DNA from: Mycolicibacterium smegmatis
GTDB lineage: Bacteria > Actinomycetota > Actinomycetes > Mycobacteriales > Mycobacteriaceae
DNA: 32,000 nt
Assembly: GCF_001457595.1 (NCBI RefSeq)
Contig: NZ_LN831039.1
Coordinates: 1,290,001-1,322,000, forward strand
Direction of reading: 5' to 3'
This document shows positions 7,843 to 30,946 of this stretch, one piece after another (positions within the stretch are counted from its first letter, which is position 1; every line of letters begins with the position of its first letter). The notes beneath the pieces are model-generated. The model was given only the letters and a program-made list of their open reading frames with translations, had not been told where the DNA came from and searched no databases. The translations under genes and the position numbers were made by a program.

Positions 7843-9093
7843 ATGGTTGCGAAGACCACTGGCAATGGACTACCTGACGTCGTCGTCACCGCCGTCGCGT
7901 CGACGACCTCGCTCGCGCCTCATGCCGAGGACACGTGGAAGCTGCTGTTGGAGGGCCGAAGCGGCATCCGCGCCCTCGACAGGCCCTTCGTCGAGGAATT
8001 CGACTCGCCGGTCCGCATCGGCGGGCAGCTCACCGAGGCGTTCGCCGACAAACTCGGCCGTGTTGAACAGCACCGGCTTTCGTACATGGGCCAGATGTCG
8101 ACGGTGCTCGGGCGCCGGTTGTGGGAGATCGCGGGCAACCCCGAGGTGGACACCCGGCGGTTGATGGTGTCGATCGGCATGGCGCTGGGCACCACCGAGG
8201 AACTCATCCTGCAGTACGACCTGTGGAAGGCCAAAGGGCTGCGCGCCGTGCCTCCCACGGCGATCCAGAAGTACATGCCCAACGCGCCCGCGGCCGCCGT
8301 CGGGCTGGACCGCAAGGCCAAGGCCGGCATCATGAGCCCGATCATGGCCGACGCCTCGGGCGCGGCGGCCATCGCGCACGCATGGCGCGAGATCATCCTC
8401 GGCGACGCGGACATCGCGATCTGCGGCGGTGTCGAGACCTGGATCGAAGCCGTGCCCGTCGGCGCGTTCAGCCAGCTGGGCATGCTCTCGACCTACAACG
8501 ACGATCCCCCCGCGGCCTGCCGCCCGTTCGACAAGGACCGCGACGGCATGGTGCTCGGGGAGGCCGGGGCGCTGATGCTCGTCGAGACCGAGGAACACGC
8601 CAAGGCCCGCGGCGCGCCCATCCTGGCGCGTCTGATGGGTGTGGGGATGACCAACGACAGCTACGACATCGTCAAACCCGATCCCGACGGGCAGCTGGCC
8701 GGCGACGCGATCCGCCGGGCGATCGAACTGGCCGGGCTCACCCCGGGCGACATCGACCACATCAACGCGCACGCCACCGGCACCGACTTCGGCGATCTCG
8801 CCGAGGCCCGCGCCATCCACAACGTGCTGGGCAGTCATCGGCCCTCGGTGTACGCGCCCAAGGCCGCGCTGGGTCACTCGCTGGGATCCGCCGGTGCGGT
8901 GGAGGCCGTGCTGACCGTGCAGACGCTGCGCGACGGCATCGTGCCTGCCACGCTCAACGTGAAGAACCCCGACCCCGAGATCGACCTGGACGTCGTGACC
9001 GATCAGCCCAGGAGTGAGCACTTCCGCTACGCGCTGAGCAATTCGTTCGGCCTCGGCGGCAACAACGTGGTGCTGGCGTTCGGGGCGGCCTAA
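7843..9093 (+). CDS. KasA/KasB-like beta-ketoacyl-ACP synthase paralogue with Asp in place of the active-site Cys
   Basis: 416 aa, collinear with my recollection of M. tuberculosis KasA. Shared segments include DVVVTAV, AIAHAWREIILGDADIAICGGVE, RPFDKDRDGMVLGEAGALMLVETEEHAKARGA, INAHATGT, APKAALGHSLG, PDPEIDLDVV and SNSFGLGGNNVVLAF. The nucleophile position reads SPIMADASG (GAC at 8350-8352), whereas KasA has PVSACSSG. Confidence 0.9.
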   Translation: MVAKTTGNGLPDVVVTAVASTTSLAPHAEDTWKLLLEGRSGIRALDRPFVEEFDSPVRIGGQLTEAFADKLGRVEQHRLSYMGQMSTVLGRRLWEIAGNPEVDTRRLMVSIGMALGTTEELILQYDLWKAKGLRAVPPTAIQKYMPNAPAAAVGLDRKAKAGIMSPIMADASGAAAIAHAWREIILGDADIAICGGVETWIEAVPVGAFSQLGMLSTYNDDPPAACRPFDKDRDGMVLGEAGALMLVETEEHAKARGAPILARLMGVGMTNDSYDIVKPDPDGQLAGDAIRRAIELAGLTPGDIDHINAHATGTDFGDLAEARAIHNVLGSHRPSVYAPKAALGHSLGSAGAVEAVLTVQTLRDGIVPATLNVKNPDPEIDLDVVTDQPRSEHFRYALSNSFGLGGNNVVLAFGAA

Positions 9094-9974
9094 CCGCTCT
9101 TCGTGTAGGCGAACTGCGCGACCTCGGAGATCCCGCGGCGGAAGAAGTCGGCGCAGCCGGTCAGGTAGTGCATGTACCGGTCGTAGACCTCTTCCGACGT
9201 CGCGGCGATCGCGGCGTCGCGTTGCGCGGACAGGTTGTCGGCCCACGTGTCGAGGGTGCGGACATAGTGCGGGTTCATCACGGTCACATCGGCGGTGTGA
9301 AACCCTGCGGCACCGGAGAAGTCACGCATGTCGTCGTCGGATGGCAGCTGCCCGCCCGGGAAGATCTCCTTGTAGATGAACCGCGTGAACTTCATGTCGC
9401 TGAGCGTCACCGCGATGCCGTGCTCACGCCAGTAGTTGATGGGATGGGTGAAGATCGTCTCGATCACCATGCGCCCGTCGTCGGGCATCACCCGGTAGGT
9501 GGTGTCGAAAAACGCCTTGTACCTCGACTTCCCGAACGCCTCGAACGCCTCGATGCTCACGATTCGGTCGACCGGTGCGTCGAACTGCTCCCAGCCCTGC
9601 AGGCACACGAAGTGTGACCGCCGCGTGTCGATCTGATCCAGAAGCTGTTGGCAGAACGCGTACTGGTTCTTGCTCAGGGTGAGGCCGATGACGTTGACGT
9701 CGTACTTCTCGATCGCGCGTTTCATCAACGCGCCCCAGCCGCAACCGATGTCGAGCAGCGTCATTCCCGGTTGCAGGGCGAGCTGGTCCAGTGCGAGGTC
9801 GATCTTGGCCATTTGCGCCTGTTCGAGTGTCATGTCGTCGCGCTCGTAGTAGGCACAGCTGTAGGTGCGGGACGGATCCTGGAACAGCCCGAAGAAGTCG
9901 TCGGACAGATCGTAGTGCGCCTGGACTTCCTCGAAATACGGCCGCATCTGGGCAGTGCCGACGCCGTCAGCCAT
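9090..9974 (-). CDS. Mycolic acid SAM-dependent methyltransferase/cyclopropane synthase family (CmaA/MmaA/UmaA-like), divergent member
   Basis: 294 aa. Contains [46 protein letters not shown] and LLDIGCGWG (SAM motif I). It has SIEAFEAFG where the family usually has SIGAFEHFG, and VIETIF where it usually has LLHTI. Its ATG overlaps the upstream gene's stop by 1 nt (TGATG). Confidence 0.9.
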   Translation of the reverse strand: MADGVGTAQMRPYFEEVQAHYDLSDDFFGLFQDPSRTYSCAYYERDDMTLEQAQMAKIDLALDQLALQPGMTLLDIGCGWGALMKRAIEKYDVNVIGLTLSKNQYAFCQQLLDQIDTRRSHFVCLQGWEQFDAPVDRIVSIEAFEAFGKSRYKAFFDTTYRVMPDDGRMVIETIFTHPINYWREHGIAVTLSDMKFTRFIYKEIFPGGQLPSDDDMRDFSGAAGFHTADVTVMNPHYVRTLDTWADNLSAQRDAAIAATSEEVYDRYMHYLTGCADFFRRGISEVAQFAYTKSG

Positions 9975-10897
9975 CAGGCCACGCTCTTCTCACAGGTGAA
10001 CTGGCAGACGTCGGTGTAGCCGTCGCGGAACAGGTCCGCGCACCCCTTGAGGTACTTGAGGTAGCGCTCGTAGACCTCTTCGGACGTGATCTCGATGGCC
10101 TGGTCCTTCTTGGCCTCCAGGTTGGCCGCCCATGTGTCGAGGGTGCGCACGTAGTGCGGCCGCAGGCGCTGCTTGCGCGTGACGGTGAAACCGGCCTCGG
10201 TGGCACGGTCTTCGACCATCGCGATCAGCGGGATGCGGCCACCCGGGTAGATCTCGGTGACGATGAACCGGAAGAACCGCATCAACGACATCGTCGTCGG
10301 CAGCCCCATCTGCTCGACCTCTTCCTTGCTGGTCGAGACGATGGTGTGCAGCAGCATCACGCCGTCGTCGGGCATCAGCTCGAAGGTCTTCTTGAAATAG
10401 TCTGCGTACTTCTCGAATCCGAAATGTTCGAATGCCCCGATCGACACGACACGGTCGACCGGCTCGTCGAAGTCCTCCCACGCCTGCAGGCGAACTTCTT
10501 TGCGGCGTGGGCTGTCAGATTCGGCGAAGCGCTGTTCGATGTGCGCGAGCTGATTGTGCGACAACGTCAGCCCGATGACGTTGACGTCGTATTTCTCGAC
10601 CGCGCGCATGATGGTCGAGCCCCACCCGCACCCGATGTCGAGCAAAGTCATGCCCGGTTGCAGGCCCAGCTTGCCAAGTGCCAGATCGACTTTCGCCATC
10701 TGGGCCTCTTCGAGCGTCATGTCGTCGCGTTCGAAGTACGCGCAACTGTAGGTCTGCGTGGGGTCCTGCCACAGCCGGAAGAACTCGTTCGACAGGTCGT
10801 AGTGCGAACGGACTTCGTCTGCTGTTGATCCGTGACGCTCGCCGGGCGGAGCTCCGACCTTGACCGCGATGTTCGATTTCTGTGGCGTTTCTTTCAC
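9974..10897 (-). CDS. Mycolic acid SAM-dependent methyltransferase/cyclopropane synthase family (CmaA2/MmaA-like), canonical motifs
   Basis: 307 aa with a GTG start. Contains [95 protein letters not shown] and [12 protein letters not shown]. Confidence 0.9.
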
Positions 10898-21364: not shown

Positions 21365-21598
21365 AGGGTGTTGTCGGGCGGATCTCGCTCGTAAGTTGCA
21401 TCGGCCCCTGGGCAGGGAATCATGCGGTTGCTGTGCTTGCTTAGGAGCGACAAACGACCTGCTACACCGCTCGTACGCTGTCCGGGAATCCGAAAACTGC
21501 CCGTCGGCCGGCATGTTCCGGCAACTCAAATTGGTGTGAGGTGGGGCGGTGCTGTCACGGGATACTTGAACTTGACGCGACGTTGCAGGAGGTAATTG

Positions 21599-21883
21599 AT
21601 GGAGGTCGATCCGCAGATTCTGAGGGCCTTGGCCGGACAAGTCGACGCAGCCGGCACGGTGATCTCGTCGGCGGATGTCGGGGGTAAGACCGTGTCCGCC
21701 GCTGACGGCCTGCCAGGTTCGACCACTCAATGGGCCACAAGGGCTGTTGGCGAACACTTCTCATCGATCGCGTCGAAGCTGGCGGAGAACGTGACCAAGA
21801 TGGGGAAGGCGGTTCGTGGCGCAGGTGATGCGTTCGAGGTCACCGATGACTCGCTTGCCAGCGACTTCGACGGGCTGTTCTAG
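21599..21883 (+). CDS. EspC/DUF2580-like small helical protein (putative type VII secretion substrate or targeting partner)
   Basis: 94 aa. ATG 21599 follows AGGAGG. Sequence is MEVDPQILRALAGQVDAAGTVISSADVGG...KAVRGAGDAFEVTDDSLASDFDGLF. The C-terminus parallels M. tuberculosis EspC (...YSEADEAWRKAIDGLFT, from memory). Confidence 0.7.
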   Translation: MEVDPQILRALAGQVDAAGTVISSADVGGKTVSAADGLPGSTTQWATRAVGEHFSSIASKLAENVTKMGKAVRGAGDAFEVTDDSLASDFDGLF

Positions 21884-21885
21884 AA

Positions 21886-23256
21886 GTGCTTCCTTCACGT
21901 TCTACGTTGACGAGCTGGAATCCCGAATCTCTAGGTGCCTCTGCATCGTCAATTGACACTGCAGCACAATCTGTGGCTGGAGCGGTGCGCGGGATCGACC
22001 AAGCCTGTCAGGAAATGCCCGTGACCCAATCGTGGTCGGGCAAGTCCCATGAGGCGGCGGCAGCCATGTTCAAACGTGCCGACCGTGATGCCGCGAAATT
22101 CTCCGGCTACGCGAACGGTGTCGCTGCTGCGCTCAGGGGTGGTGCGGAATCGATCGGGTCCGCGCGGAGCGCGCTACTTGCGAAGGCGGAGCAGCTAGAC
22201 ACTGGGCCTCTCAACGTCACGGATCAGTGGGTGGTACTGATTGACCCTGCATACATGTCGGCCGACGAATTGGCGAAGCTACAAGAACTGGCTATGGAGG
22301 AGCAGGGTGTCGTGAACCGTATGCTCAGTGCCGTTGGTGACGCGGACGAAGCGACCGCGAACGCGGTGTCCTCTGCGGGAAAAGAGTTTGGGTTCGTCGA
22401 GCCAGGACCGCCGAAGACGGGCCTCGACTTGATTGTTCCGTCAGCCCAACGACCAACTGATCAGGTTCCGGACCCGAGAACTCCAATCGGGGTAATCGGC
22501 CAGGAAGCGATCAGGTCAGCTGATGAACAGCAGAACATCCGAGAAATCACGAAGTCAACGAACGAACACGGCGAAGAACTGACGACTGTGATCAAGCAGG
22601 ATGGCAGCAAGTCGGTTCTGAAGCGCATGAATCCGTTCGACTGGCCGAGCAAGCAGAACTTTTATCAGATCGAGGAGTACGACAAAAACGGTGACTTCGT
22701 CGCGCGGACTAGTTCTTGGCACAGCGCTGGCAACGACTGCGACTACACATCAATCACATACGCCGATAACTCCAATCTCACGATGTCTATGGACTCATCG
22801 GGGCATCGGACCGTGGGATTTACAACTGCCGAGGGTCATCACAGTCAAGTACCTGTCGACTTGATCGACAGAATGTCGACGTCGACCGGTGCAGCGATGT
22901 CCGGGTTGGAGAAGCACATAGGGCGTGGCGGTTCGCTGCCGATGGTGACCGCAGAATCTGTCGAAAACATCGGAAAAAATCTGAAATGGGGTGGCCCAGC
23001 CCTTACCGCAGCGACCACGGTATTCGACATGGCGATGGCTGAATCAGGTAAAGACAGGTGCATTGCGCTTGTCGCGGGCGTGGCTGGCGGTGGTGGTGGC
23101 TGGGGCGCGGCAGAATTCGGGGCCTGGGTCGGCGCATTCGGCGGTCCCGTTGCGCCTGTCACCGTTCCCGCCGGCGCCCTCGCATTTGGGCTTGTGGGTG
23201 GTTTCGGTGGTTCTAAGCTCGGTCAGTTCATTGGAGAGGTCGTATGTCCGTCCTGA
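21886..23256 (+). CDS. WXG-domain protein with C-terminal glycine-zipper module (candidate ESX-exported membrane-active toxin)
   Basis: 456 aa, starting 3 nt after the EspC-like gene. The N-terminal helical domain carries W-S-G (TGG at 22033). The low-GC middle region matches nothing I recognise. The C-terminus reads ...CIALVAGVAGGGGGWGAAEFGAWVGAFGGPVAPVTVPAGALAFGLVGGFGGSKLGQFIGEVVCPS. Confidence 0.7.
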   Translation: MLPSRSTLTSWNPESLGASASSIDTAAQSVAGAVRGIDQACQEMPVTQSWSGKSHEAAAAMFKRADRDAAKFSGYANGVAAALRGGAESIGSARSALLAKAEQLDTGPLNVTDQWVVLIDPAYMSADELAKLQELAMEEQGVVNRMLSAVGDADEATANAVSSAGKEFGFVEPGPPKTGLDLIVPSAQRPTDQVPDPRTPIGVIGQEAIRSADEQQNIREITKSTNEHGEELTTVIKQDGSKSVLKRMNPFDWPSKQNFYQIEEYDKNGDFVARTSSWHSAGNDCDYTSITYADNSNLTMSMDSSGHRTVGFTTAEGHHSQVPVDLIDRMSTSTGAAMSGLEKHIGRGGSLPMVTAESVENIGKNLKWGGPALTAATTVFDMAMAESGKDRCIALVAGVAGGGGGWGAAEFGAWVGAFGGPVAPVTVPAGALAFGLVGGFGGSKLGQFIGEVVCPS

Positions 23257-24017
23257 GTCTTCCGGAACCAGCCGCTTGGCGTAGTGGGCGAACACTGCTT
23301 GTAGTGGCTTTAGCCGGCGCAATAGCAGTCGCGGCGGTATACATCGTTCTGGGTGTAGTCGCAGCAACTCGCGGAAACTATCTCACCACGGCGGTGGCCT
23401 TCGGATGGGCAGCCTTCTTAGTGGCATTCTCTGCAGCGGTCCTGCTCGTCGGACTTGGTCGGACGAAATCCCAATTCGCCAGTGATTCAACGGGGCTGAC
23501 GGTGCTGCCAGATCCAAGGTTCGGCGTGCTCATGCTTGTGGGTCTTGTTGTACTGATCCCCAGCTCTGTGGCGTTCGCGGTGTGCGCACCGTTCGGCGCC
23601 ATCGAGTTCGCTGACTCCAGGGGATTGCAAACGATAGGGGCTGGTTTTGCCGCCATCGTCGCGTTCGTCGCAGTTCTAGGACTGATCACATCCTGGCGGC
23701 GAGGAGGAGTCGGGCACGTCAAATTGACTCCCGCCATGATCGAGACGGTCGACATCCTCACGAAGCGGGTGTGCGAGTGGGACGACGTCATCGACGTCGT
23801 TGATCACGCTGAATCACGAAAAACACGGCGCGCGGTGGTTCTTCGACTGCGCGACGGCAGCGAAGAGGTCATCGATATCGCCGACATCTACCTGCCCCGG
23901 GGCGCGGCCCTTTACTGGCTGGTGCGGCACTATTGGCGGCATCCGGAGGACCGCATGGAGCTAGTAGATTCGCGTGCTCCGGGGCGGCTGCACGACGGTC
24001 GATTCGACATGGGCTGA
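23244..24017 (+). CDS. Four-TM membrane protein with a soluble C-terminal domain (candidate cognate immunity protein)
   Basis: 257 aa. ATG 23244 is preceded by GGAGAGG and overlaps the upstream gene by 13 nt. Four hydrophobic helices are evident: LLVVALAGAIAVAAVYIVLGVV, AVAFGWAAFLVAFSAAVLLVGL, FGVLMLVGLVVLIPSSVAFAVCA, GAGFAAIVAFVAVLGLITSW. A ~100-aa charged tail follows. Confidence 0.65.
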   Translation: MSVLSLPEPAAWRSGRTLLVVALAGAIAVAAVYIVLGVVAATRGNYLTTAVAFGWAAFLVAFSAAVLLVGLGRTKSQFASDSTGLTVLPDPRFGVLMLVGLVVLIPSSVAFAVCAPFGAIEFADSRGLQTIGAGFAAIVAFVAVLGLITSWRRGGVGHVKLTPAMIETVDILTKRVCEWDDVIDVVDHAESRKTRRAVVLRLRDGSEEVIDIADIYLPRGAALYWLVRHYWRHPEDRMELVDSRAPGRLHDGRFDMG

Positions 24018-28889: not shown

Positions 28890-28908
28890 GGGGCTTGCGG
28901 CAAGGCCC
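28890..28908. promoter_or_regulatory. RAE-like (rifamycin-associated element) 19-bp inverted repeat upstream of arr
   Basis: GGGGCTTGC-G-GCAAGGCCC, with arms matching 8 of 9 positions, lies 50 nt upstream of the arr start. From memory, a conserved inverted repeat of this type precedes actinobacterial rifamycin-resistance genes (arr, rph, rox, helR). Confidence 0.55.
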
Positions 28909-28957
28909 GGTGCCTGGTGCACAATCGGCGGTCCGATCACACGGAACAGGGGGAATA

Positions 28958-29389
28958 GTGGTGGCGAATCCGCCGAAACCGTTCGAAGTGCACGAGTCCG
29001 GGGCCTATCTGCACGGCACCAAGGCCGACCTCAAGGTGGGGGACCGACTGGTGCCCGGCCGCGAGTCCAACTTCGAGGCCGGGCGCATCATGAAGCACGT
29101 CTACATCACCCAGACGCTGGACGCCGCGGTGTGGGGCGCCGAGCTTGCTGTCGGTGAGGGTCGCGGGCGGATTTACATCGTCGAACCCGAGGGCGAGATC
29201 GAAGACGACCCGAACGTCACCGACAAGAAGCTCCCCGGCAACCCGACCCGCTCCTACCGCACCCGTGAGCCCGTGCGGATCGTCGGGGAGCTCACCGACT
29301 GGGAGGGGCATTCGCCGGAGCAGATCGCTGCCATGCGGGAGGGGCTCGAGGATCTACGGCGCAAGGGGCTCGCGGTCATCTATGACTAG
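28958..29389 (+). CDS. arr: Rifampin ADP-ribosyltransferase
   Basis: Track ORF 28895..29389 trimmed to GTG 28958 (or 28961), after GGGGGA. VVANPPKPFEVHESGAYLHGTKADLKVGDRLVPGRESNFEAGRIMKHVYITQTLDAAVWGAELA...GLAVIYD matches the M. smegmatis Arr sequence as I remember it (H-Y-D core residues; ~143 aa). Confidence 0.92.
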   Translation: MVANPPKPFEVHESGAYLHGTKADLKVGDRLVPGRESNFEAGRIMKHVYITQTLDAAVWGAELAVGEGRGRIYIVEPEGEIEDDPNVTDKKLPGNPTRSYRTREPVRIVGELTDWEGHSPEQIAAMREGLEDLRRKGLAVIYD

Positions 29390-29688
29390 GTGGGGTCTGC
29401 GGCGCTGTTCGGCGGCTCAGCGACGCGGACTGATGCCGCGAGGATGCCTAGAACCAGGATGAGTGGAACCGAAACGGGCCATGCGATCAGCAACAACATT
29501 GGACCCCACATCGTGAGGTTCACGATGAACAGGCGAACGTACTCGCCTGTTGGCACTGGGCTGGTGTCATTGCTGCCGGCGATCATGCCGACGGACAAGC
29601 CGATCCCCGCCACCGTGCAGACGAACGCGGTTGCCGCTGCCGTGCAGGCGAGCACGCGGCGTGAGCTGGGCTTGGCGAATCTGATCAT
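29386..29688 (-). CDS. Small two-TM membrane protein, hypothetical
   Basis: 100 aa, MIRFAKPSSRRVLACTAAATAFVCTVAGIGLSVGMIAG...MWGPMLLLIAWPVSVPLILVLGILAAS... Its ATG overlaps the upstream stop as ATGA. The region has lower GC. Confidence 0.5.
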   Translation of the reverse strand: MIRFAKPSSRRVLACTAAATAFVCTVAGIGLSVGMIAGSNDTSPVPTGEYVRLFIVNLTMWGPMLLLIAWPVSVPLILVLGILAASVRVAEPPNSAADPT

Positions 29689-30134
29689 CTGCGATTTTTC
29701 GGTAACAGCGCCCCGCGCGCCTCATCAATATGGGCCAGCAGCAGAGCCTTTCGCCAAGTCCACCACGTTTCTTCGTCGGCGTCGACTGGAGGGGTCTGCG
29801 GATCATCGTCAGAGCGGCTGAGCGCCAACAGGTGGCGCCATCCGTCGGACGAACCGGTGAGGCCGAAGGCGTTAGGAGCGTCGAGGGGAGCGAGCATGAC
29901 GTCGATGCCACCTTCACGTGCTGACCAACAGATCTGCAGTTTGTAGTCGGCGCTTCGATAGTAAACGGCCCACGTCGGCCGGTCTCCGTACACCATCGTG
30001 TTGTCCGCTGCCTCCAACGCGAAGCCGAGACTTGCCAACATTGGCCCCAGGTGTTGGTCGACACTCGTATGGCTCACAGTGACCATTCTTCCTCGCATCG
30101 AAAGTCCGAGGCGACTCGTGCGAAGTCGCGTCAC
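29685..30134 (-). CDS. Hypothetical cytoplasmic protein
   Basis: 149-aa ORF. Start is uncertain: GTG 30134, ATG 30098 or ATG 30086. Contains ...MVTVSHTSVDQHLGPMLASLGFALEAADNTMVYGDRPTWAVYYRSADYKLQICWSAREGGIDVMLAPL... It is translationally coupled to the two-TM ORF. No family recognised. Confidence 0.45.
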   Translation of the reverse strand: MTRLRTSRLGLSMRGRMVTVSHTSVDQHLGPMLASLGFALEAADNTMVYGDRPTWAVYYRSADYKLQICWSAREGGIDVMLAPLDAPNAFGLTGSSDGWRHLLALSRSDDDPQTPPVDADEETWWTWRKALLLAHIDEARGALLPKNRR

Positions 30135-30168
30135 GCTCCGGAGACCGCAGCCGACGAGGACTTGTGTT

Positions 30169-30438
30169 TCACGCAGGCCCTCGCCGATCGAGAGGCCAGG
30201 CTGAAAGGTAGACGCCGATGGCGTTGTCGATCGCCCTGCCGCGTTCGTTGGGTATGTGCTCGGGTCCGTAGTTGTCGCTCAACGCTTCTGAGAGCGCGTC
30301 GATGAGCGCGTCGCTCTGTTCGATGGTGGGCCGCTCACACCTCTGAAGCAGATACAGAAGTTCCGGATTTCTCTGCGCGAGTTCACCTTCGATGACTGCA
30401 CGGGCATCATCTGAGATTGCATCAAGGACACTGCTCAT
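30169..30438 (-). CDS. Small acidic helical hypothetical protein (89 aa)
   Basis: Track ORF 30169..30738 trimmed to ATG 30438, preceded by GGAGGAG. Sequence is MSSVLDAISDDARAVIEGELAQRNPELLYLLQRCERPTIEQSDALIDALSEALSDNYGPEHIPNERGRAIDNAIGVYLSAWPLDRRGPA. Confidence 0.45.
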   Translation of the reverse strand: MSSVLDAISDDARAVIEGELAQRNPELLYLLQRCERPTIEQSDALIDALSEALSDNYGPEHIPNERGRAIDNAIGVYLSAWPLDRRGPA

Positions 30439-30598
30439 GGTCTCCTCCATCCACCTCGGCGGGACGGGACTGGTGTATCGCGGCAGGCGTTCATGGCGGG
30501 CGACAATGCAAAACCGCCACCACGTACACGAACGCGATTGCCGCTGCCGTGTGGGCGAGTATGCGACGCATCTCGTTCTGGATCTGATCATCGGCAAC

Positions 30599-30946
30599 CT
30601 ACGCCGGATCGGCATAGCGGCGTGGCTCGTTCGAGACCGCAGGCCGCTCGACGGGCGGTGCAATCGTGTGTTCGACCTTCGGTGCCTGATACCGATACTC
30701 ATTCGGGATCTCCTCCACACGTGCCGGCAGTCCGTCATGCTCGTGCCCAGCCCACTGGATGGTATGAGGATCGAGAGGCTGCTCTGGAGGAAGTCCCGGC
30801 CAATCCTCCTCGAGGTCGAGCAAGTAGTAGTACCGGACGGCTTCGTCCAGGTCTTGCCACGGTCCCGGGTTGATGATCGATTGCGTCGTATCGCGGACGA
30901 GGCCCCATGGGGTGGGTGATGAAGACGCCGTGTACACCAGGTACAT
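30599..30946 (-). CDS. Hypothetical protein
   Basis: Track ORF 30599..30973; ATG 30946 gives MYLVYTASSSPTPWGLVRDTTQSIINPGPWQDLDEAVRYYYLLDLEEDWPGLPPEQPL... Lower-GC region. No family recognised and the SD is weak. Confidence 0.35.
   Translation of the reverse strand: MYLVYTASSSPTPWGLVRDTTQSIINPGPWQDLDEAVRYYYLLDLEEDWPGLPPEQPLDPHTIQWAGHEHDGLPARVEEIPNEYRYQAPKVEHTIAPPVERPAVSNEPRRYADPA

Follow-up and report, generated by a model that had tools for sequence, protein, structure and literature searches.

The ESX-dependent toxin CpnT/TNT of Mycobacterium tuberculosis has small WXG partners encoded upstream, EsxE-EsxF, and an immunity factor, IFT. Phage-encoded ESX-secreted toxins (PEST) have been described by Hatfull's group from prophages of Mycobacterium abscessus and M. 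chelonae; in two of these systems toxicity in M. smegmatis was relieved by the immunity gene, and a model placed the WXG domain of about 170 residues in a PE/PPE-like heterodimer together with the small partner (PMC10654092). Among the type VIIb secretion systems (T7SSb), toxins with a glycine zipper are known together with their immunity proteins, namely TspA/TsaI and EsxX/ExiAB/ExiCD from Staphylococcus aureus and TelE/TipE from Streptococcus gallolyticus (PMC7456083, PMC12744356, PMC10434224). Here we have analysed a cassette of three open reading frames (ORF1, ORF2 and ORF3) in a stretch of 32,000 nucleotides from the chromosome of Mycolicibacterium smegmatis (contig NZ_LN831039.1, positions 1,290,001 to 1,322,000), below called the window. 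ORF1 is a small EspC-like protein, ORF2 a larger WxG protein with a glycine-zipper C-terminus, and ORF3 a membrane protein. ORF1 and ORF2 are likely substrates of an ESX (type VIIa) secretion system, and with moderate confidence we read the whole cassette as an ESX substrate pair that includes a zipper toxin, followed by ORF3 as its cognate membrane protection factor.

The gene order is that of the PEST systems, both as published (PMC10654092) and as seen in annotated examples (loci L027 and L028), i.e. a WXG100/EspC-type protein of about 100 residues comes first, then a large toxin that begins with a WXG domain, and last an immunity gene. The small partner from phage Aegeus matches the same EspC family of Pfam as ORF1. 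On the other hand, the ORF2 N-domain shows weak or no profile similarity to PEST toxins (hhalign E = 9e-4 with a probability of 23% for Aegeus gp35, and E = 0.39 for the prophiT46-1 toxin). PEST are carried by prophages and confined to the M. abscessus-chelonae complex, whereas the M. smegmatis cassette is chromosomal, lacks any phage or plasmid match, and belongs to a family conserved across Mycobacteriales. Moreover, its C-terminus is a zipper hairpin rather than an enzymatic TOX domain and is not polymorphic, and ORF3 is distinguished by four transmembrane (TM) helices combined with a PH-like domain.

With TspA, EsxX and TelE the cassette has in common a helical N-terminal targeting domain accompanied by small helical partners, a C-terminal zipper predicted to insert into and depolarise membranes, and a polytopic membrane protein encoded downstream in the position of immunity. 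Immunity genes of the TspA/EsxX type also occur as orphans and as tandem paralogues, as ORF3 does. However, the former toxins belong to T7SSb of Bacillota and have LXG domains and Lap partners, whereas the domains of the cassette are of the T7SSa type, PPE-like/WXG with an EspC-like partner, and no similarity to TspA/EsxX/TelE-type toxins could be detected in searches of Pfam and of PDB sequences. The zipper of ORF2 differs in being a hairpin between two invariant cysteines that follows a beta meander, and its target cell would be surrounded by a mycomembrane. Immunity to EsxX is divided between soluble ExiAB and membrane-bound ExiCD, whereas ORF3 has a membrane part and a cytoplasmic domain in one chain, which, speculatively, might do the work of both ExiCD and ExiAB.

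The pairs EspC/EspA, EspF/EspE and PE/PPE resemble ORF1/ORF2 in that a small hairpin protein with a YxxxD/E-type motif accompanies a larger WxG protein with a PPE-like N-domain, and the order small gene, large gene is that of pe-ppe. ORF2 is however not detectably homologous to EspA or EspE, the cassette is unlinked to any ESX locus or to espD/espG-type genes, and compared with EspC/EspA and PE/PPE it adds the downstream membrane protein and the glycine-zipper C-terminus. CpnT differs by its N-domain with two WXG units (PEST3-like), its NAD+ glycohydrolase activity, its soluble immunity protein, its host-cell target and the lack of a glycine zipper. The claim, made in an earlier note on this DNA, that no ESX-dependent membrane toxin/immunity pair had been characterised in mycobacteria has to be narrowed, since PEST cassettes have already been described there (PMC10654092); it stands for membrane-targeting pairs, of which none was found characterised in our literature searches. 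The annotation of ORF1 and ORF2 as T7SS targets is already public. What would be new is the zipper family with an ORF3-type partner, together with the comparative evidence for immunity-like behaviour of ORF3.

The three ORFs are coupled (Table 1). The earlier note, which was made from the letters of the sequence, had their coordinates right, and likewise the overlap of 13 nucleotides between ORF2 and ORF3 and the ribosome binding site (RBS) GGAGAGG of ORF3, which is situated within ORF2 (23232-23238). The same overlap is present in loci L002, L003, L004, L007, L010, L011, L022 and L025. ORF1 is preceded by an AGGAGG RBS 7-8 nucleotides 5' of its start (about 21586-21591), with a TTG at 21596 as alternative start, and two nucleotides separate its TAG stop from the GTG of ORF2. 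A scan of the sequence revealed neither a sigma-70 consensus promoter nor an intrinsic terminator for the cassette, and the gene on its 3' side is in convergent orientation.

Table 1. Features of the cassette; positions refer to the window.
Feature	Position	Strand	Start codon and length	Basis
Upstream intergenic region, presumed promoter and ORF1 RBS	21365-21598	+		sequence reading
ORF1, EspC/PE-like helix-turn-helix partner	21599-21883	+	ATG, 94 aa	Pfam PF10824, alignment of 8 homologues
ORF2	21886-23256	+	GTG, 456 aa	
ORF2 residues 1-170, PPE-like helical ESX-targeting domain	21886-22395	+		WXG100 score, AlphaFold2, Foldseek
ORF2 residues 171-215, Pro-rich linker	22396-22530	+		low confidence of the model at 171-190
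ORF2 residues 216-325, beta meander	22531-22860	+		AlphaFold2, Foldseek
ORF2 residues 326-456, amphipathic lead-in and Cys-bracketed two-helix glycine zipper	22861-23256	+		alignment, motif count
ORF3, candidate immunity protein with four TM helices and PH-like domain	23244-24017	+	ATG, 257 aa	AlphaFold2, Foldseek, comparative genomics

The low-GC character noted before was borne out by comparison with the flanks, the GC content being 0.58-0.63 in the cassette and 0.67-0.72 in flanking genes, with corresponding values of 0.63-0.75 and 0.85-0.92 for third codon positions (GC3) in the cassette and in the genes on either side. A thioredoxin-like (DsbA-like) gene directly 5' of the cassette has a native GC3 of 0.85, and the island thus comprises precisely ORF1-ORF3. 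The same gene was considered as a member of the module and rejected, because of its native GC3 and because it is not found near the cassette in other species.

ORF2 is 100% identical to WP_058125435.1, named "WXG100 family type VII secretion target" by NCBI, where ORF1 is named "type VII secretion target". Several public annotations let ORF2 start at internal codons, giving forms of 413, 396 or 427 residues, and these starts (between 21886 and 22014) remove part of the WXG domain. The long form that starts with the GTG at 21886 is supported, since MLPSRxxLxxW is conserved throughout the family. An identical M. smegmatis contig is present in at least 20 sequencing samples, and a literature search with guessed mc2155 locus tags, MSMEG_1211-1215, retrieved nothing.

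ORF1 gave the EspC/DUF2580 match that had been predicted for it (PF10824, T7SS_ESX_EspC; 31.1 bits, cutoff 23.5), with residues 1-91 aligned to profile positions 5-99 of 100, and the same match is precomputed for its homologues in L003, L004, L010, L011, L013 and L022. The PE profile was matched with E = 0.007, below the cutoff, and the resemblance to WXG100 in Pfam is weak. Eight aligned homologues have in common a DGLPGSTTQW loop and the C-terminal pattern VRGAGD-(F/Y)-E-V-x-D...LF. The C-terminus, VRGAGD-(F/Y)EVxD...FDGLF, constitutes an export motif of the YxxxD/E type, albeit an imperfect one since F replaces Y in the subfamily of ORF1 (FEVTD, as compared with YEVDD or YEVTD in distant paralogues). 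The expected composite signal, in which one partner supplies WxG and the other an export motif, is found with WxG in ORF2 and (Y/F)xxxD in ORF1.

In L001 (7700-7960) three tandem repeats of about 85 nucleotides occupy the expected position of ORF1, next to a Doc/Fic-like toxin gene and beside intact ORF2 and ORF3. In M. litorale (L005:6433-7631, also L004) an ORF of 67 residues, with 48% identity between its N-terminus and residues 3-44 of ORF1, lies ahead of a patatin phospholipase of 320 residues just 5' of the cassette, and a patatin gene lies near the cassette in M. pulveris as well (L006:13763-14803). The 67-residue ORF and the patatin may be another pair of an EspC-like partner and a lipase effector.

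The W-x-G motif and the helical nature of the first about 170 residues of ORF2 were both found as anticipated. The WXG100 family (PF06013) was matched, marginally, by residues 11-89 with 27.7 bits (cutoff 27.3), and individually by 12 of 25 divergent family members (E <= 0.01), among which no other domain recurs; the score against NCBIfam TIGR03930 was 28.9, below its cutoff of 44.85. The WxG motif (W50-S-G52 in the window) is invariant in an alignment of 25 homologues, down to about 21% identity, and the same is true for W11, W115, Q140 and D154 in the N-domain and for P197, D239, G240, G269, C392, G446 and C454 in the remainder of the protein. An AlphaFold2 monomer model, built on an alignment of 39 sequences, predicted residues 1-166 as helical with a predicted local distance difference test (pLDDT) value above 90, comprising helices 14-43, 53-105 and 126-166 and a conserved beta hairpin at 109-119. 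In a Foldseek search of the PDB this domain resembled the folds of PPE15, PPE41 and PPE4 (probability 0.57-1.0), although the TM-scores on the target were 0.39-0.45 and the E values exceeded 0.03. No PPE match in Pfam and no Foldseek match in the PDB with E below 1e-3 were obtained for ORF2, a PDB sequence search gave chance matches only, and a search against viral folds gave nothing below E = 1e-3. ORF1 and ORF2 are likely an ESX substrate pair since EspC and WXG100 are matched above cutoff, WxG is invariant, the fold is PPE-like, ORF1 ends in (F/Y)EVxD...LF, and the names given by NCBI agree.

The linker that follows the N-domain contains, besides the invariant proline, the near-invariant residues P190, G202 and Q206. 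It leads to a meander of about nine antiparallel strands (modelled span 217-322, pLDDT about 80-85), an OspA-like single-layer sheet with YD-like hairpins in which D239, G240 and G269 are located. Foldseek matched this sheet to OspA with probability 0.95 and to Rhs/teneurin proteins weakly, and no Pfam profile, RHS/YD included, was matched.

At the end of ORF2 a lead-in (GGPAL..TTVFDM) is followed by C392, by helix A with G398, G404, A408, G412, G416 and G420, by the turn GPVAPVTVPAG, by helix B in which G438, G442, G446 and G450 form a perfect zipper run, and by C454. With zipper motifs defined as (G/A/S)xxxGxxxG or GxxxGxxx(G/S/T) in a hydrophobic C-terminal segment (PMC12744356), the 63 residues from C392 to C454 contain eight overlapping matches compared with one in the other 390 residues, a count that confirms the proposed glycine-zipper repeats. 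The span consists to 49% of Gly, Ala and Ser, the KD19 peak of the C-terminus is 1.67, and at least one zipper motif is present between the cysteines in 23 of 25 family members. The invariance of C392 and C454 points to a disulfide formed outside the cytoplasm. The sole Pfam match of the C-terminus is to DUF7327, with 17.4 bits and below its cutoff.

The zipper segment and its KWGGxAL...D lead-in are shared with long metagenomic proteins (E about 1e-5 in a library of 1.8 billion proteins), which lack the cysteines and either match PHROG tape-measure/tail-lysin families or carry lysozyme and M23 peptidase domains. Five of these proteins (P0358, P0359, P0361, P0367 and P0375) display the common motif KWGGxAL...D...GAxxGAFGGPxAPVTVPxGAL..G..GxFGGS, and one protein of this set has lysozyme-like and M23 peptidase domains. 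From these sequences the zipper motif region appears to be a membrane-insertion module common to phage tail proteins and the ORF2 family.

For ORF3, the four TM helices and the soluble tail proposed earlier were recovered both in the Kyte-Doolittle profile (four hydrophobic helices with peaks of 2.4-2.9) and in the AlphaFold2 model (helices 16-42, 46-70, 91-117 and 126-153; mean pLDDT 88.7). An LPEPxxW motif is found at the N-terminus and a beta hairpin in the loop between TM2 and TM3. Residues 156-257 form a PH-like beta sandwich with a capping helix, which contains LYWLVRHYWRHPEDRxEL and was matched by Foldseek to the PH domains of GRK2 and Rtt106 (probability 0.97-1.0, E 0.03-0.1), while the score against the bPH_6 family was weak (15.2 bits, cutoff 22, E = 0.022). 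The positive-inside rule predicts the N-terminus, the hairpin loop and the PH-like domain to be cytoplasmic. Nothing significant was found for ORF3 in Pfam, NCBIfam, PHROG or PADLOC, and matches to EccD and MAB_1171c (E 0.17-0.49) were discarded as noise.

Comparison of related loci, whose contexts were gathered by exact-protein look-up (a scan of genome contigs gave only two loci), adds support to an immunity role of ORF3. Across 11 species, Gordonia among them, each intact ORF2 that was examined has ORF3 directly on its 3' side, in most with the 13-nucleotide overlap, and among these loci no intact ORF2 was seen without ORF3. Conversely, ORF3 was retained after two independent deletions that had destroyed ORF2. 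In a divergent M. smegmatis lineage (L012/L014) a clean deletion of 768 bp (21434-22201) has removed the upstream region (21434-21598), ORF1 and codons 1-105 of ORF2, and the ORF3 protein is 100% identical to that of the window. The remaining cassette DNA is 99.7% identical (5 mismatches in 1898 nucleotides) as compared with about 96-97.5% for the flanks, suggesting recent transfer within the species, or a sweep. M. austroafricanum has an intact ORF3 beside a remnant of ORF2 without about residues 141-420, and in M. syngnathidarum (L002) two intact, non-identical ORF3 genes are arranged in tandem. The "truncated" ORF2 proteins of 396 and 314 residues in M. smegmatis L017-L019 were not counted as decay: L019 is 100% identical to the window, so that its short ORF2 is a difference in gene calling, and L017 and L018 have single-base indels in short-read assemblies, possibly errors.

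An exhaustive search assigned about 160 clusters at 50% identity to the ORF2 family, nearly all with the same architecture from residue 1 to 455. Named members come from Mycolicibacterium, Mycobacterium, Nocardia and Gordonia; among the matches listed, none was found in the M. tuberculosis complex. The three genes are kept together from Mycolicibacterium to Gordonia, and in G. amarae the ORF2 homologue is accompanied by the small gene and by a distant homologue of ORF3 (hhalign E = 3.6e-6). The flanks of the cassette are different in every species, those in M. smegmatis being chromosomal housekeeping genes, and tblastn against 50,697 phage records and 72,556 plasmids gave no match to the cassette. 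Genes of biological conflict are frequent neighbours elsewhere, including toxin-antitoxin (TA), PIN/Phd, Doc, RES, nSTAND NTPase and BrxL genes, transposases and a DEAD/YjiV/MZB helicase. A gene for a PLD nuclease fused with an SF2 helicase and DUF3427 lies directly 3' of the cassette in two species (L002:11046-14237 and L022:6914-10009), which suggests a shared island with a defence-type gene; in L022 BrxL and a transposase are also close.

In L011 (7033-9525) a chromosomal PEST-like cassette directly precedes the homologue of the M. smegmatis cassette. It encodes a WXG100-like protein of 88 residues, a toxin-like protein of 573 residues that has WxG near residue 43 and ends in a TNT (NAD+ glycohydrolase) domain, and a protein of 163 residues with a weak match to Imm61 (21.5 bits, below the cutoff of 25). 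The TNT protein is 33% identical to annotated polymorphic toxins of M. abscessus prophages, and its N-domain is colinear with the ORF2 family (hhalign E = 1e-4, probability 58%). A further protein, P0345, has an ORF2-type N-domain fused to an alpha/beta hydrolase (Abhydrolase_8). Only at this superfamily level, in P0345 and possibly in the TNT protein, is a related N-domain combined with other C-termini.

Several results weigh against a toxin with a cognate protection factor. The ORF2 C-terminus is constant over about 160 clusters, down to 25% identity, and not variable and co-varying with the downstream gene as the earlier note had expected. Co-variation between warhead and immunity protein was tested in two ways and is unsupported: the correlation of ORF2 regions with ORF3 is weak (Mantel r 0.2-0.45 over all pairs) and peaks just before the zipper, not inside it, and a switch between the two classes of ORF3 is not tied to ORF2. 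Of the combination that had been named as speaking against a toxin, namely an unvarying C-terminus and unrelated neighbours, the former is thus found and the latter is not. The best-conserved parts of ORF3 (LPEPxxW and LYWLVRHYWRHPEDRxEL) are predicted to be cytoplasmic whereas its TM helices evolve fastest, and neither a DUF443/TsaI-type match nor a PADLOC match was found for the cassette. The WXG100 score of ORF2 exceeds the cutoff by only 0.4 bits, the predicted match of residues about 370-456 to a glycine-zipper family was absent from Pfam even at E <= 10, and the C-terminus, modelled as helical, has an AlphaFold2 confidence below 45. Three species with intact ORF2 and ORF3 lack ORF1 at the locus, and in none of the loci fetched was an ESX core gene seen within 6-10 kb. 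A subfamily with 35-38% identity occupies one fixed site of the core genome (purQ / M18 peptidase / purL) in M. porcinum and M. duvalii, and the Gordonia cassette sits among core metabolic genes. Finally, an exported protein would still have to cross the mycomembrane of a target cell.

Several of these points would fit a pair that acts on its producer. ORF1 and ORF2 might be an ESX pair whose zipper anchors in, or forms a channel through, the producer's own envelope, serving transport or another envelope function, with ORF3 as an assembly or regulatory partner in the inner membrane instead of an immunity protein, an explanation that we consider unlikely. PE/PPE proteins serve as outer-membrane nutrient channels, and EsxE/EsxF form pores. 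The fixed architecture of the triad from Mycolicibacterium to Gordonia, the subfamily at a fixed core-genome position, the C-terminus that neither is polymorphic nor co-varies with ORF3, and the strongly conserved cytoplasmic elements of ORF3 are all in line with such a role. On the other hand, ORF3 has stayed intact after the loss of ORF2 in the M. smegmatis lineage and in M. austroafricanum, where a dedicated partner would be expected to decay together with ORF2. The tandem non-identical copies of ORF3, the atypical GC3, the variable insertion sites, the neighbours from toxin and defence islands, and the TNT toxin cassette adjoining in L011 also argue against a self-directed function.

The same defence-type neighbours (BrxL, the PLD-helicase-DUF3427 gene in two species, the nSTAND NTPase and the DEAD/YjiV/MZB helicase) would suit an intracellular defence or abortive infection system, in which ORF2 is a tail-anchored depolarising effector that is checked by ORF3 and released upon phage attack or other stress to kill or arrest the host. 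The zipper segment shared with phage tape-measure-type proteins and the cytoplasmic PH-like domain of ORF3, which could sense or regulate, are compatible with this idea, viral defence is among the possible roles listed by the PEST authors (PMC10654092), and EsxX is toxic from the cytoplasmic side too (PMC12744356). We nevertheless regard it as improbable, since WxG and a (Y/F)xxxD partner are hallmarks of export, the invariant cysteine pair suggests an oxidising compartment, PADLOC gave no match, the cassette was not found in phage or plasmid collections, and an ORF3 kept without the effector would be functionless. Very improbable, in our estimate, is an effector against eukaryotes, where exported ORF2 damages the membranes of amoebae or other predators and ORF3 merely guards the producer during biogenesis. 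The evidence for an ESX substrate is the same as for an antibacterial toxin, and it is mainly soil mycobacteria, with their exposure to protozoa, that carry the family. In M. tuberculosis, ESX-1 and TNT are directed at host cells, and the producer of TNT possesses an immunity factor. However, the orphan and tandem ORF3 genes argue for selection for protection from the toxin of neighbours, and the known glycine-zipper toxins of T7SS are antibacterial.

Returning to the zipper toxin with its protection factor, we infer the following course of events from the domains and motifs assigned to the three genes, from their conservation and from their behaviour in genome comparisons. The ORF1 hairpin with its (F/Y)xxxD motif would form a heterodimer with the PPE-like WxG domain of ORF2, thereby creating a composite export signal, and the complex would leave the cell via an ESX system. 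ESX-4 is a candidate route, by inference only, because Gordonia and Nocardia are reported to have ESX-4 only (PMC11217815). Once outside the cytoplasm, C392 and C454 would staple the zipper hairpin, which may enter the cytoplasmic membrane of a target bacterium and oligomerise by GxxxG packing, so that an ion-conducting lesion arises and cells without ORF3 are depolarised. For the beta meander in the middle of ORF2, binding to the envelope or shielding of the hairpin is a probable role. ORF3, whose translation is coupled to that of ORF2, would protect producers and kin; its TM helices would act in the membrane, and its PH-like domain, on the predicted cytoplasmic side, may retain the toxin until it is exported. 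A bolder proposition is that the cassette is the founding member of a Mycobacteriales-wide class of chromosomal, ESX-exported, disulfide-stapled zipper toxins for competition between mycobacteria, with ORF3 neutralising the toxin in both compartments; this is possible, and we hold it tentatively.

Two other regions of the window deserve mention. On the - strand (9090-10897) two tandem paralogues of mycolic-acid cyclopropane synthase/methyltransferase (CMAS) have a low overall GC (0.61) and a high GC3 (0.85-0.88). Several low-GC3 ORFs without Pfam match (29386-29688, 29685-30134, 30169-30738 and 30392-30919) come after arr (Arr-ms; 28895-29389), the gene for rifampin ADP-ribosyltransferase, and this patch (28895-30919) may be another acquired one.

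The analysis bears on the use of ESX systems against other bacteria, a use that is clear for the T7SSb of firmicutes and for which there are so far the PEST cassettes and a 2026 preprint in which Schaalia reportedly defends itself against epibionts. If the bolder proposition holds, ORF2 would be, for T7SSa systems, the first membrane toxin directed at other bacteria. If the toxin assignment is true, ORF3 would represent a new immunity architecture of four TM helices and a PH-like domain, and the chromosome of the standard model M. smegmatis would harbour a membrane-targeting candidate effector together with its protection gene. Passage of such an effector through the mycomembrane of a neighbour would then call for an explanation. 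If, instead, ORF2 acts on the producer's own envelope, it would represent a new type of ESX substrate that has a membrane protein as its partner. M. smegmatis lineages that are naturally toxin-minus and ORF3-plus exist and are ready test strains. The concept as such is unsurprising, and the value of the cassette is that it offers a testable handle, in a model organism, on ESX-mediated competition between mycobacteria.

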